From: a virus
Virus genome (UHGV): UHGV-1660455
Strand: one strand, 5' to 3'
DNA: 22,842 nucleotides
How positions within the stretch are numbered: position 1 is the first letter of the stretch; each line of letters opens with the position of its first letter. The notes beneath the pieces were generated by a model. That model saw only the letters and a list, made by a program, of their open reading frames with translations. It was not told where the DNA came from and searched no databases. The position numbers and the translations under genes are program-made. This document shows, one piece after another, positions 10,487 to 14,981 of the stretch.

Positions 10487-10885
10487 TCACATGTCGTAAG
10501 TAATGGAATATTTCAGGTCGGCAGAACTCCACAGCGCCATATCGTCATCGCGCTGGTAGTCATAGCCCTGCTGAACCATTGTGGTGATAAGAGATTCAAG
10601 CCCCGGAACCTCTGCGAGAACCGGATACACTCTCGTCTCCATCCAGTCATCCAGATCAGAATCAGGTACCTGAGCCTCAAGAAAGACTTCGATATGCAGA
10701 ATGGCCTGCCAGCTATCGGCGTCCAGTTCTTCCCCTGTGTATTCCGCATCTGTCAGGTAGACGGCAACAGCGGGAAAATCACCCTCTTCGAGCACTGCAG
10801 GTCTGCCGTCAAAATAAATGACATCAGTACCAATCGCGCTTTCCAGCGCGTCAATAATCACCTTGCGAATATCGCTGTGTTTCAT
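10487..10885 (-). CDS. U: Tail tube terminator protein U
   Basis: 132-aa ORF with the ...[27 protein letters not shown]... motif pattern of lambda U. Confidence 0.92.
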
Positions 10886-11436
10886 CGTGTCAGAATTAAC
10901 CTGAGTTGGTTGGTAAGGGATGCCCGGAGCTCTTTGGGCATATCTGACTCCATGAGCTTCGGCAGTTCTTCTTTAAATGCCGTAGTTAATGGAGCTGCCA
11001 GCGGGATGCTGACCACTTCAATGGGGTAACGAGGTTTTGAAGTCCGCCTCATGACATGCCAGCGACCATTTTTAAGTTGCTGGATAAAGCCGCCCGGAAA
11101 ACGAAATGGCCCTATGCGAAGAACGCTGTTGGCCCCTTTCTTGTCCCGTTTTCTGCGGGAAAGTCGCACGCTTGCGGTACCGAGTTTAATGGCCGGTAAA
11201 TTTCCCCGGTTTACCCGGATAAGTGCACGAGGTCTATTGACCGTCGCACGCTTCACCCTGGCGCGTTGCTTTACCAGTTTTCGCGGTACGCGCGTATCTT
11301 TTGATACGACTGCCACGCTGCGGCTGACGGCCCGGTTTGCCACGCGGTTAACGGCCTGCGCCGATGCCCGCGGAACAGCCGTTTTGCTGATGCTGTTAAG
11401 GTTTTCTATGGCCTGTTCAAGGCCTTTTATGGACAT
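10882..11436 (-). CDS. Z: Head-tail connector / tail completion protein Z
   Basis: 184-aa basic ORF between FII and U in lambda order. Confidence 0.85.
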   Translation of the reverse strand: MSIKGLEQAIENLNSISKTAVPRASAQAVNRVANRAVSRSVAVVSKDTRVPRKLVKQRARVKRATVNRPRALIRVNRGNLPAIKLGTASVRLSRRKRDKKGANSVLRIGPFRFPGGFIQQLKNGRWHVMRRTSKPRYPIEVVSIPLAAPLTTAFKEELPKLMESDMPKELRASLTNQLRLILTR

Positions 11437-11445
11437 ATGCGCTCC

Positions 11446-11799
11446 TTAACGGCGACGCGAAGATGCAGGTGGAGAGCCGTTACCCAGACAGATATGACAG
11501 GAGCCACAGTCATCCGGACCAATACGTTCAACCCAGAATTGCCGACCGTTAATCGTCAGCGTGTCCATACGCTGCAGCTGCCTGACAGTGGCGGTTTCCA
11601 CAAACAGGGTCGGGCTGGTTCCTTCAACACGAATCCCGGCACCGGCATATCCGATATTTTCTGGATCATCGAATACACCGACCAGGGTGGCACCTGACAA
11701 AGCGCCTGACATCACCTTTGCCTCTGTGCCCATCACACCACGGATAGCGCTATCAGCTCGCGACATGGCCTCGTCAAAGAGATTATCGAAATCAGCCAT
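11446..11799 (-). CDS. FII: Head-tail joining protein FII
   Basis: 117-aa ORF, same length and position as lambda FII. Confidence 0.88.
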   Translation of the reverse strand: MADFDNLFDEAMSRADSAIRGVMGTEAKVMSGALSGATLVGVFDDPENIGYAGAGIRVEGTSPTLFVETATVRQLQRMDTLTINGRQFWVERIGPDDCGSCHICLGNGSPPASSRRR

Positions 11800-11809
11800 G
11801 TGGCCCCCT

Positions 11810-12271
11810 TCAGACTTCGAAAGCCAGCCCCTTTGCGATCAAGTCGTCGGCATCCTGTTCAGATACGCGGATAATCACACCAGGCTCTACGATAGATACC
11901 GGCTCGTTACGCGTGGCATGCAGAGCGTCAATATGCAGGGTGGCCAGCGTTTCTACTGATACCAGGTCACCCGTTGTGGCCGATTCCGTTTTTACTTTTG
12001 CCACGTTAGCAACATTGTTGTCGGTGCTGTCGGTGCTGTCGGTGCTGTCGGTGCTGTCGGAAGCATTCTGCACGCCGTTTTCACCGTCAACTGACCCGGC
12101 ATTGCCATCCAGTTCCTCTTCAAGCTCAGCAATACGCATCGTCAGTTCCTGAATGGTGCCGCTGGTACTGACCTCGCGGTTAAGCTGGGTCCCAAGTTCA
12201 TTCAGGCGGGCGACCAGCTTTTCTTTTTCTGTCATGGGAAATACTCCAGAAAGGTGGCCCGACAGGGCCAC
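11810..12271 (-). CDS. FI: DNA packaging protein FI, with an expanded (DST)n linker
   Basis: 153-aa ORF. The N-terminal ...EL.ARL.ELG.QLNR.VS..GT..EL..R.AEL.EELD... and C-terminal ...LH.DALHATR.EPV... segments are lambda FI-like; the central acidic linker holds the tandem repeat. Confidence 0.88.
   Translation of the reverse strand: MALSGHLSGVFPMTEKEKLVARLNELGTQLNREVSTSGTIQELTMRIAELEEELDGNAGSVDGENGVQNASDSTDSTDSTDSTDNNVANVAKVKTESATTGDLVSVETLATLHIDALHATRNEPVSIVEPGVIIRVSEQDADDLIAKGLAFEV
12021..12060. repeat. Perfect 9-bp tandem repeat (TCGGTGCTG, about 4.4 copies) inside FI, encoding (Asp-Ser-Thr)n on the minus strand
   Basis: Read directly: tcggtgctg x4 followed by tcgg. Confidence 0.95.
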
Positions 12272-12280
12272 TGGGGGAAG

Positions 12281-13306
12281 TTATGCCAGTTTGACGGAGA
12301 CGAATGCGTCAGGGTCTGGCAGCAGCATCAGCGGAGCTGACTGAATCATGGTGAATTCGCGCGCCGGATCCCCCGACTGCACCCAGTTTTTCGGGTAGCG
12401 TGTCGAGGCATTGATACCTTCGCGCTGGGCATCAGCATCAAGAATGCAGCCATAGGTACGCAGGCCACGAGCCTGGGTATTCCCCAGCACCATTGTCAGG
12501 TCCGGCAGATAATTCTTTTTGACGTCGTTTTCGACGTACTGGCCGGAGTACACCACGATGGCCACATCGCCAAACATCCCCTTGTATGAAACAGCCATAC
12601 CCAGGTCTTTCACGGCAGTTTCCAGCTCAGAGTTAGAACCACGACGCGTATCCAGCTTCTTCTCAACAGCCTTGAAGGAACGGAACAGCGCCCAGCCTTT
12701 CGGATCGAACACAATGATGTTGACCACACCGCTGGCGTTGAGCGCGTAGGCTTCAATGTCATCGGTCGGGTCATACGTTTCTTTGTCGCGGGTTGACCAT
12801 GCAGCCGCACCGGCCTGGACAATGTTGTTACCAGCGCTGCGGCCCATATCGACTTCAACAGGCTCGAACGCTTCCCCGGTCATGGTGTATTTACCGCTGA
12901 GCACCGCCGAAACAGCCTGTTTCTCTTCGACCTGAGCAATCGCCAGCTCTTCATCCTTCATGTTCTGAAGGATAATGCGGCGACGGCGATAGACCGGGTC
13001 AGCGAGATTCTGCGGATCCTCATCCGGCAGGCGGCGGAGAGTCATCAGTGGGTTAACTTCGTGTTTCGGCTTCACATAACCCGGCGTGAATTCAGACGTG
13101 CTGCCGCCACGGGAGCGGATCACTTTGCCGGAGACAATCGGCGAGACGTAAAGCGCCATATTGACCAGGCCAGGAATTTGCGACAGGTAAACCTTCTCTG
13201 TACTGAAGGGATAGGTTTCGCGGAAAAAGATACGCAGGAAAAGCGGATCGAATTTGAATTTCTTCTCATTGACCGCCAGCAGTTGGGCAGTGGTGTAAAC
13301 GGACAT
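12281..13306 (-). CDS. E: Major capsid protein E
   Basis: 341-aa ORF, same length as lambda E and highly similar along its whole length (MS.YTTAQLLA.NE.KFKFDPLFLR...). Confidence 0.96.
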   Translation of the reverse strand: MSVYTTAQLLAVNEKKFKFDPLFLRIFFRETYPFSTEKVYLSQIPGLVNMALYVSPIVSGKVIRSRGGSTSEFTPGYVKPKHEVNPLMTLRRLPDEDPQNLADPVYRRRRIILQNMKDEELAIAQVEEKQAVSAVLSGKYTMTGEAFEPVEVDMGRSAGNNIVQAGAAAWSTRDKETYDPTDDIEAYALNASGVVNIIVFDPKGWALFRSFKAVEKKLDTRRGSNSELETAVKDLGMAVSYKGMFGDVAIVVYSGQYVENDVKKNYLPDLTMVLGNTQARGLRTYGCILDADAQREGINASTRYPKNWVQSGDPAREFTMIQSAPLMLLPDPDAFVSVKLA

Positions 13307-13715: not shown

Positions 13716-14981
13716 TTAAACGGGGGTGTTTAACAAATCGTCAGCGGCATCAGAAGATGCGCTACCTGCTGGGAGTGCACCGGGTGCTGTTTCCATCAAA
13801 CGATCCAGCGCCGTATCGGTACGCGCCTGGGCACTTTGCGGTGCAGCAGCCAGAATGCGCTGTGCGCTCTCTACCGTCATACCCGGCGTTTCGGCCAGTG
13901 CTCGCGCCTGTGACTCACGCCCTTTAGCCTCATCGCAGTTCAGGATGCCCATGATGCGGCTATTCTCTGCAGCTACTGCTGCAGTAACCTGCGCACTGAC
14001 ATCTACAGGGGCCGCTACGGAAGCAATGGTCGTGTCAACGGTAGTGACCTGTTCAGCTGAGGCAGTTGTCTGAGTTGCTGCCTGGTCAACTGGCTTAGTG
14101 GTCACAGCTGAAGCAGAAGGTGATGGCATAGTTCCTCCAAGGGTTGTTTTTTTGCGTCTGTCGAGTGCTTCGCGCATCACGCCGAGCGCATCGGTATTGT
14201 TAACAAGTTCATCCGCCAGTCCGTTATCCAAAGACTCCTGGCCGGAGAATACTGCCGCTTCGGTGTCCAGCACGTCCTGAACAGACATGCCGGTATAAGC
14301 GGAAACCTTTTCGGCAAACATCTGACGAGTGGCATCGATACGCGTCTGGAAATCAGCACGCACATCTTTCGGAAGCTTTTCGTAAGGGTTGCCGTCGACC
14401 TTGCGATCGCCGCTGTAAATCAGCGTGACCTCAACGCCGTTAGTTTTGAGCGCAGCGCCATAGTTGCTGTGCGCCATCATGACCCCAATGGAGCCGGTTC
14501 TGGCCGTTTGTGTGACCAGCCGTCGCGATGCCGAACTGGCTATAAGCTGCCCTGCACTGCAGTTCATGTCATTGGCCAGCGCCCAGATGGGTTTGATATC
14601 GCGCATACGGGCTATAATGTCGGCGCAGTCAAACGCCCCGGACACCATTCCACCCGGCGTATCCATATCCAGAAGAATGCCGTCAACGCCGGGGTCACTG
14701 ATTGCCTGCTGCAGGCGAGCAATGATCCCGTTGTAACCCGTCATGCCGGAATAAGGCTGAAGCGCACGGGTTTTACTGACCAGCGTGCCGGAAACCGGCA
14801 AGACCGCGATACCATTTGCCACCTGATAGCTGCGTGATGGACGGGGATCCATGTCATCATCCTCACCAAACAGCGCCAGCGGTTCGGCTATTTGTCCGGC
14901 ATCAAGCGTGATGCCAGAGACGGTATCTGTCAGCCGGGTGATGCCCAACTGGCCAGCCAGCGCGCAAATAGGCGGGTTCAA
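13716..14981 (-). CDS. C: Head maturation protease / scaffold protein C (S49 peptidase family; the 3' portion corresponds to the Nu3 scaffold frame); the 5' end appears frameshifted
   Basis: 421-aa ORF that opens on a TTG directly after an in-frame TGA. It is recognisably lambda C from ...CALAGQLG... onwards, but the first 26 C-like codons lie in another frame (next feature). Confidence 0.85.
   Translation of the reverse strand: MNPPICALAGQLGITRLTDTVSGITLDAGQIAEPLALFGEDDDMDPRPSRSYQVANGIAVLPVSGTLVSKTRALQPYSGMTGYNGIIARLQQAISDPGVDGILLDMDTPGGMVSGAFDCADIIARMRDIKPIWALANDMNCSAGQLIASSASRRLVTQTARTGSIGVMMAHSNYGAALKTNGVEVTLIYSGDRKVDGNPYEKLPKDVRADFQTRIDATRQMFAEKVSAYTGMSVQDVLDTEAAVFSGQESLDNGLADELVNNTDALGVMREALDRRKKTTLGGTMPSPSASAVTTKPVDQAATQTTASAEQVTTVDTTIASVAAPVDVSAQVTAAVAAENSRIMGILNCDEAKGRESQARALAETPGMTVESAQRILAAAPQSAQARTDTALDRLMETAPGALPAGSASSDAADDLLNTPV

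Follow-up and report, generated by a model that had tools for sequence, protein, structure and literature searches.

Does a short tandem repeat inside a phage head gene vary in length between relatives, and if so, what would the variation change in the protein that the gene encodes? We addressed this question for a 9-bp repeat in gene FI of the UHGV virus genome UHGV-1660455, using a stretch of 22,842 nucleotides (hereafter the window, meaning the whole stretch of DNA that was analysed). The product of this gene, gpFI, binds the gpE lattice of the procapsid and bridges it to the complex of terminase and DNA (PMC13595911; PMC4856287), and in lambda the E lattice is the proposed docking surface of the FI C-terminal domain (PMC4856287). 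A CRISPRi screen scored the protein as essential (PMC10695390), and another paper names it among examples of functional disordered linkers (PMC10968229). By analogy with lambda, from whose literature both activities are taken, FI of the window would promote the association of terminase with the prohead and stimulate packaging. A literature search returned no description of a DST repeat, or of its polymorphism, in FI and no paper containing the string DSTDSTDST; a repeat feature at the FI site is also absent from four annotated phage records, those of N15, phi80, HK225 and mEp237.

A perfect 9-bp array lies in frame within FI

Tandem Repeats Finder, run over the whole window, placed its top-scoring tandem array at 12019..12060, with a period of 9, 4.7 copies, 100% matches, 0 indels and a score of 84. 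Reading the sequence directly, we found TCGGTGCTG four times on the plus strand, followed by one partial copy, which corresponds on the minus (coding) strand to four copies of GACAGCACC running from 12058 to 12023; two flanking bases on one side (..CC) and four on the other (GACA..) stretch the periodic tract to 42 nt.

12019..12060, minus strand: perfect period-9 array, (GACAGCACC)x4, encoding (Asp-Ser-Thr)4-Asp, FI residues 60-72

The tract contains 33 consecutive matches between positions i and i+9, against a chance expectation of 4e-16 for a window of this size and composition, and the longest run that the window shows at another period (4 to 30) is 9. The unit GACAGCACC is matched four times in the window, each time within the array, where 0.23 matches are expected from shuffled sequence. 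The array is in frame within the open reading frame 11810..12271 (minus strand), whose translation there reads ...NASDSTDSTDSTDSTDNN..., and the peptide that it encodes is S-(DST)4-D. The first-pass annotation had described a perfect in-frame 9-bp repeat of four copies and a partial one, encoding Asp-Ser-Thr, and both the sequence and Tandem Repeats Finder confirm that description; of the limits that it had given, 12021 to 12060, the end is correct, while the start lies two bases too far in, as perfect periodicity begins at 12019. Elsewhere in the window, two copies of an imperfect 21-bp direct repeat, 80% identical, occupy 11393-11432, close to the 5' end of a Z-like gene and to its junction with the FII-like gene.

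FI is a 141-residue protein in a lambda-like head operon

The gene and its surroundings are as follows.

11810..12235, minus strand: FI (DNA-packaging chaperone) coding sequence, 141 amino acids plus stop (PF14000; RefSeq annotation of identical genes)
12235-12233, minus strand: FI start codon ATG, with GGAG at 12247-12244, 8 nt upstream
12281..13306, minus strand: major capsid gene, lambda E-like, 341 amino acids, directly upstream of FI (PF03864, E=1e-64)
11446..11799, minus strand: FII-like head-tail joining protein gene, directly downstream of FI (PF05354; RefSeq annotation)
12254..12271, minus strand: E-FI intergenic hairpin GUGGCCC-UGUC-GGGCCAC, with a 7-bp G+C stem (terminator annotation in the HK225 and N15 records)

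The identification of the gene as FI, already proposed in the first-pass annotation, is borne out on three counts: firstly, Pfam family PF14000 (Packaging_FI) is matched along the whole protein, with a score of 182.3 bits (cutoff 27; E=6.9e-54) and with residues 3-138 covering profile positions 1-131 of 131; secondly, the E-like, FI and FII-like genes lie on one strand in the order of a lambda-like late operon, and a closely related annotated E. coli prophage has the whole of such an operon, from Nu1 (terminase small subunit) to J (tail-tip), in the same order; thirdly, the gene is annotated in RefSeq relatives as 'DNA-packaging protein FI'.

The length of 153 amino acids given earlier for this protein does not hold, because it takes an upstream GTG at 12271 as the start. 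That triplet is the first of the hairpin stem and has no ribosome-binding site, and we rejected it as the FI start. Since the ATG at 12235 is preceded by GGAG, all FI homologues aligned begin MTEKEKL, and the RefSeq length of the identical gene is 426 nt, FI is 141 amino acids long. Annotation of the start differs between database records: the RefSeq, N15, HK225 and mEp237 records use the ATG, and the phi80 record (JX871397; L010:301-753) begins FI at an upstream GTG and gives it 150 amino acids.

The hairpin between E and FI is recorded as a rho-independent terminator for HK225 and N15. In the window, a simple terminator scan did not call it at 12254-12271, because its T tract is weak (CUUUCUGG). 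It may attenuate transcription from the abundant capsid gene into FI.

The array maps to a predicted disordered linker

We modelled FI with AlphaFold2 from an alignment of 25 sequences. The model, the alignment itself and homology to the lambda protein divide FI into three parts.

12104..12235, minus strand: FI N-terminal domain, residues 1-44, predicted helical hairpin (AlphaFold2; near-invariant alignment columns)
11966..12103, minus strand: FI linker, residues ~45-90, acidic, polar and variable (AlphaFold2; alignment)
11813..11965, minus strand: FI C-terminal domain, residues 91-141 (homology to the lambda gpFI domain, 2LSM; AlphaFold2)

The model has helices at residues 3-24 and 27-43, a segment at residues 45-76 with pLDDT below 50, and a confident, beta-rich C-terminal domain at residues 91-140 (pLDDT about 83-89), and the lambda gpFI C-terminal domain (PDB 2LSM), the one relative with a solved structure, aligns to residues 87-138 with E=2e-9. 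In the 25-sequence alignment, residues 1-44 and 92-141 are nearly invariant and every indel falls at the repeat site. The segment that carries the array, residues 45-76, is thus predicted to be disordered, with a domain on either side, in agreement with the earlier view that a flexible linker between these domains holds the repeat.

Copy number differs among phages and prophages

Across N15, phi80, HK225, mEp237, Enterobacter phages, E. coli prophages and IMG/VR, the number of units ranges from 1 to at least 10. FI of this type was present in 35 of 5,426 complete E. coli genomes, and the 32 full-length matches at 95% identity or more measured 444, 453, 462, 471 or 480 nt, that is, they differed in steps of 9 nt. 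Fourteen E. coli and phage loci, read directly, have 2, 3, 4, 5, 6 or 8 perfect GACAGCACC units, and in the closest relatives among them the FI protein is identical outside the array; where E. coli loci were read, the lengths of 444 to 480 nt matched 2-6 perfect units. Named examples are listed here.

mEp237: 2 copies
HK225: 3 copies
phi80: 3 copies
The window: 4 copies
N15: 5 copies
Enterobacter phage MStein-2023a: 8 copies

Scanning IMG/VR for two adjacent units returned 89 loci, 23 of which have FI flanks and carry 2-6 copies. Two contigs of IMG genome 2703718696 end inside the array, one with 10 copies (L065, 11020-11109) and the other with 5 (L054, 12827-12871); the allele of this genome probably has at least 10 copies. 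Arrays of GACAGCACC also occur on unrelated IMG/VR contigs that have no FI flanks: one bears six copies (L040:1611-1664), and another bears three perfect copies within a (DST)4 stretch of a different open reading frame (L021:3142-3168). In the plasmid collection, the only matches were of 444 nt, in N15-like Enterobacter plasmid-prophages, once 38-nt matches to Streptomyces had been set aside as spurious.

Exact look-ups in the protein collection placed the n=1, n=2 and n=3 alleles on 10, 169 and 630 contigs, respectively, and found none of the n=4-9 alleles. This looks like a gap or a filter in the collection and not like biology. Because RefSeq holds alleles of n=4 (WP_016240130), n=5 (WP_023062982) and n=6 (WP_097719098) that the collection lacks, the allele-frequency spectrum drawn from it is unusable above n=3. 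The frequencies of long alleles are in general poorly known; short-read contigs break inside long arrays, and such alleles are likely to be under-represented in short-read data.

The first-pass annotation had expected the length of the FI linker to be polymorphic, and it is: annotated genomes and phages carry 2-6 or 8 copies, IMG/VR contigs carry 2-6 and in one genome at least 10, and the alleles in the protein collection have 1-3.

Whole units are gained and lost on otherwise identical sequence

That annotation had proposed a comparison of copy number between close relatives and would have been refuted by a lack of variation; the relatives do vary. Sixteen sequences, the window among them, are identical over 513 + 513 nt of flanking DNA (1,026 nt) yet carry 2, 3, 4 or 5 units; two further flank haplotypes have two alleles each, and at least five copy-number changes are required within identical-flank haplotypes. 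Over longer distances, 5,190 nt aligned between mEp237 (L059) and the window contain a single mismatch, and mEp237 has two units fewer; L078 shows seven mismatches in 8,638 nt and likewise has two units fewer; in these two alignments the array is the sole indel or one of two. As a rough estimate from such comparisons, the array would change about once for every substitution in several kb, or at 10^3 to 10^4 times the per-site rate.

Three apparently clonal groups of complete genomes, namely the seven of the 2020S05-013 series and two sets of three near-identical genomes, all have n=4. High-frequency switching in clonal populations was thus not seen in these 7 + 3 + 3 genomes, and the uniformity of this small sample argues that the array is not hypermutable on outbreak or laboratory time scales.

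The pattern of change offers a number of further clues. Firstly, units come and go whole: all length differences are multiples of 9, and the arrays read as perfect. Secondly, the identical GACAGCACC unit, synonymous positions included, recurs in phages whose flanks have diverged by 7-15%; the arrays of N15 (5 units), phi80 (3) and MStein-2023a (8) have flanks that are 10-15% diverged and an unchanged unit, and whereas about 31 substitutions would be expected in the arrays of the diverged phages at the divergence of their flanks, 0 were observed. Thirdly, one locus (L016) reads (GGCAGCACC)3(GACAGCACC)2, that is, a variant unit has itself been amplified; GSTGSTGSTDSTDST proteins also exist among the FI homologues. 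Unit identity despite flank divergence reads as the signature of homogenisation by turnover, and the whole-unit steps, the identical units and the amplified variant together suggest slippage turnover and concerted evolution, of which they are the classical marks.

Other repeats occur at the same site in the wider FI family

As judged from these sequences, the DST array is a feature of one lineage, that of FI of the N15/phi80/HK225/mEp237 type in phages of Escherichia and Enterobacter. Other short repeats are found at the same FI site in homologues (P0075-P0119, P0123 and P0198), including GSTGSTGST, DSPDSPDSP, DGTDGT, DSIDSIDSI and EEQEEQEEQ, as are complex DSTDIDTDTNIDTDSTD blocks (DSTDIDTDTN-type) in proteins of up to 159 amino acids. 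Among 79 near-full-length FI representatives (50% identity clusters), 3 have at least three perfect copies of a tripeptide in the linker (DST, DSI and EEQ) and several more have two. Repeats of other kinds thus occupy the same site across the family, and repeat-based growth of the linker therefore recurs. A scan of GTDB species representatives yielded only five distant FI homologues, from Kluyvera, Citrobacter and another member of the Enterobacteriaceae, all with non-repetitive linkers; those of the distant Kluyvera and Citrobacter proteins are acidic and rich in Gly, Ser and Thr.

The array is very probably a coding VNTR that sets tether length

We consider it very probable that the array is an in-frame coding minisatellite (variable-number tandem repeat, VNTR) in the disordered FI linker, which changes by slippage and alters nothing but the length of the tether. 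Like other VNTRs, it has at least three near-identical units, its copy number differs on the same flanks, and the differences come in whole-unit steps. From these features we infer slipped-strand mispairing as the cause of copy-number change: the identical 9-bp units would allow the nascent and template strands to misalign by whole units at replication, or, by an alternative route, to recombine over the short homology between units. Either event would add or remove Asp-Ser-Thr tripeptides and leave the reading frame intact, and frequent gain and loss would keep the units alike, as in concerted evolution. Recombination between phages could have spread part of the allele diversity, so that a given allele need not be a new creation each time.

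At the level of the protein, a change in the number of DST units would do no more than alter the length of an acidic, flexible tether, each unit being worth 3 residues, or about 1 nm of contour length. Such changes would be close to neutral, a wide range of tether lengths being apparently tolerated; this tolerance is read from natural variation alone, and some carriers may be defective prophages. The partners of FI show no corresponding change: an identical capsid protein (WP_000118198.1) accompanies n=3, 4 and 5, and an identical FII protein (WP_000753023.1) accompanies n=2 to 6. With the same E and FII proteins across copy numbers, no partner compensation is therefore needed.

Alternative explanations

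It is unlikely, in our judgement, that the array serves as an adaptive tuning knob, akin to a contingency locus, in which selection maintains a mutable array for the sake of capsid or terminase partners or of escape from a host factor. Such selection would fit the persistence of a conserved perfect unit across phages with 10-15% diverged flanks, but neutral turnover explains the conservation of the unit equally well. It would also fit the GST, DSP, DGT, DSI, EEQ and DSTDIDTDTN-type repeats that other FI lineages have built at the same site, which suggests recurrent repeat-based evolution of the linker; most representatives of the family, however, have linkers without repeats. Moreover, an in-frame unit of 9 bp is unable to switch expression on or off, the clonal groups are without variation, and the occurrence of identical E and FII proteins with n=2-6 gives no sign of co-adaptation. 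On/off phase variation was considered in its own right and rejected: the 9-bp unit lies inside the open reading frame, and every allele examined encodes full-length FI.

We also think it quite unlikely that the DST array, instead of being a tolerated passenger, is under selection as a 'length dial', which would make it a contingency locus of a quantitative, non-switching kind in a chaperone of virion assembly. If this were true, it would let lambdoid and N15-like phages re-tune the reach of FI quickly after acquiring a new capsid or terminase module, or might alternatively serve the evasion of a host factor that targets FI.

It is very unlikely that the array acts at the level of nucleic acid, whether by binding a protein, by forming an RNA structure, as a hot spot of recombination at a module boundary or by coding on the opposite strand, with the peptide as an incidental product. 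The 27-72 nt of perfect identity that it provides between diverged phages could be a crossover site, and an 11-mismatch patch in HK225-type sequences stops just upstream of it, but in the mosaic relatives whose divergence changes sharply, the junctions are found off the array, at the boundary of E and FI or close to the 3' end of FI. The open reading frames that overlap it, 11913..12152 (plus strand) and 11992..12132 (minus strand), might point to additional coding, but are low-complexity read-throughs of the repeat (LSV, PTA) inside a well-supported FI gene. Finally, the RNA is predicted to fold no better than shuffled sequence (z = -0.35), the unit is absent from the rest of the window, and a promoter and terminator scan around FI returned nothing tied to the array.

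The array was also rejected as a general mosaic junction, as those junctions, in L004, L010, L012, L013 and L086, fall elsewhere. Only the HK225-type sequences (L007, L097 and L036) have a patch that stops near the array. It comprises 11 mismatches at positions 401-500 of a reference segment made of FI +/-300 nt, occupies the linker-coding segment directly upstream of the array, with almost no mismatches downstream, and may mark a tract of recombination whose end is at the repeat.

That the differences in copy number are sequencing or assembly artefacts, produced by collapse or expansion of the repeat, is scarcely credible. Short-read contigs do break in long arrays (L065 and L054), and a few database proteins have single odd units (DNT, YST) that resemble read errors. 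However, a tract of 18-72 nt fits well inside single reads, and alleles differ both between complete E. coli chromosomes and between finished phages from different laboratories (N15, phi80, HK225 and mEp237). Moreover, the seven isolates of one strain series agree on n=4, and every difference is an exact multiple of 9 in which the units stay perfect.

State of the prophage

Apart from the FI array, the window has two features that set it apart from its close relatives. At about 14967/14968 (region ~14960-14975), it is without 14 bp (GCGCGGGTTTTCTT-type) that are present in four close relatives (L078, L082, L100 and MSB1_9D, L104), and the site is flanked by GCGCG microhomology. As a result, a gpC-like S49 head protease/scaffold gene (minus strand; ATG at about 15045) is out of frame after codon 26 and meets a stop at about codon 48, about 20 codons past the shift; what is left in the window is an open reading frame of 421 amino acids that restarts at a TTG, as compared to 447 amino acids in relatives. 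Gene C is essential in lambda. Because the 14-bp deletion shifts the frame of this gene, the prophage of the window is possibly defective for head assembly and, as its sequence suggests, may be unable to build heads. In addition, the Z-like tail gene (10882..11436, minus strand) has CTT as codon 106 in the window, a private synonymous difference at 11119 that is absent from each of the seven close IMG/VR relatives compared.

Significance and comparison with known systems

The mechanism by which gpFI acts as a chaperone is so far only partly understood, and the alleles of this locus form a natural series, from n=1 to at least 10 in an otherwise identical protein, that could be used to relate tether length to the bridging of procapsid and terminase-DNA complex by gpFI. 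The practical consequences are modest: the array is a cheap length marker that separates near-identical lambdoid and N15-like prophages, and it calls for caution in annotation and assembly, since long alleles break short-read contigs and the FI start is assigned inconsistently (141 as opposed to 150-153 amino acids).

FI of the window shares with lambda gpFI its family (PF14000), its position between E and FII, and its architecture, with a helical N-terminus joined by a disordered, acidic linker to a small C-terminal domain. The two proteins are 43% identical, with identity confined to the N- and C-terminal parts; the lambda linker, by contrast, is non-repetitive and cannot be aligned, its protein has 132 rather than 141 amino acids, and no length polymorphism has been described for it. 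The FI proteins of N15 (gp9), phi80, HK225 and mEp237 are much closer, having the GACAGCACC array at the same codon position and 83-100% identity outside it, and differ in their copy numbers of 5, 3, 3 and 2, as compared to 4 in the window.

Beyond the family, the FtsZ C-terminal linker is a disordered, 'entropic' linker whose length matters more than its sequence. The FI linker would resemble linkers of this kind in that a flexible tether joins two interaction modules and composition is conserved while sequence is poorly so; for FI the likeness is drawn from sequence and predicted structure. With simple-sequence contingency loci, the array has in common a repeat-mediated, slippage-type mutation; whereas those loci shift the reading frame or the spacing of a promoter, with frequent on/off changes, FI alleles all keep the open reading frame.

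The Ser-Asp repeat (R) regions of the staphylococcal Clf/Sdr proteins are in-frame coding VNTRs of bacteria. As is generally known, these too have short, perfect units in multiples of 3, form acidic, hydroxyl-rich, flexible spacers, and vary in copy number between strains while the flanking domains stay constant. The Clf/Sdr regions, however, are cell-wall-spanning stalks of adhesins, with dozens of copies of 18-bp units, whereas FI is a cytoplasmic chaperone of phage assembly, and its array has a 9-bp unit in 1 to about 10 copies. In-frame VNTRs of disordered linkers are a well-known phenomenon, and the FI array is no new kind of system.
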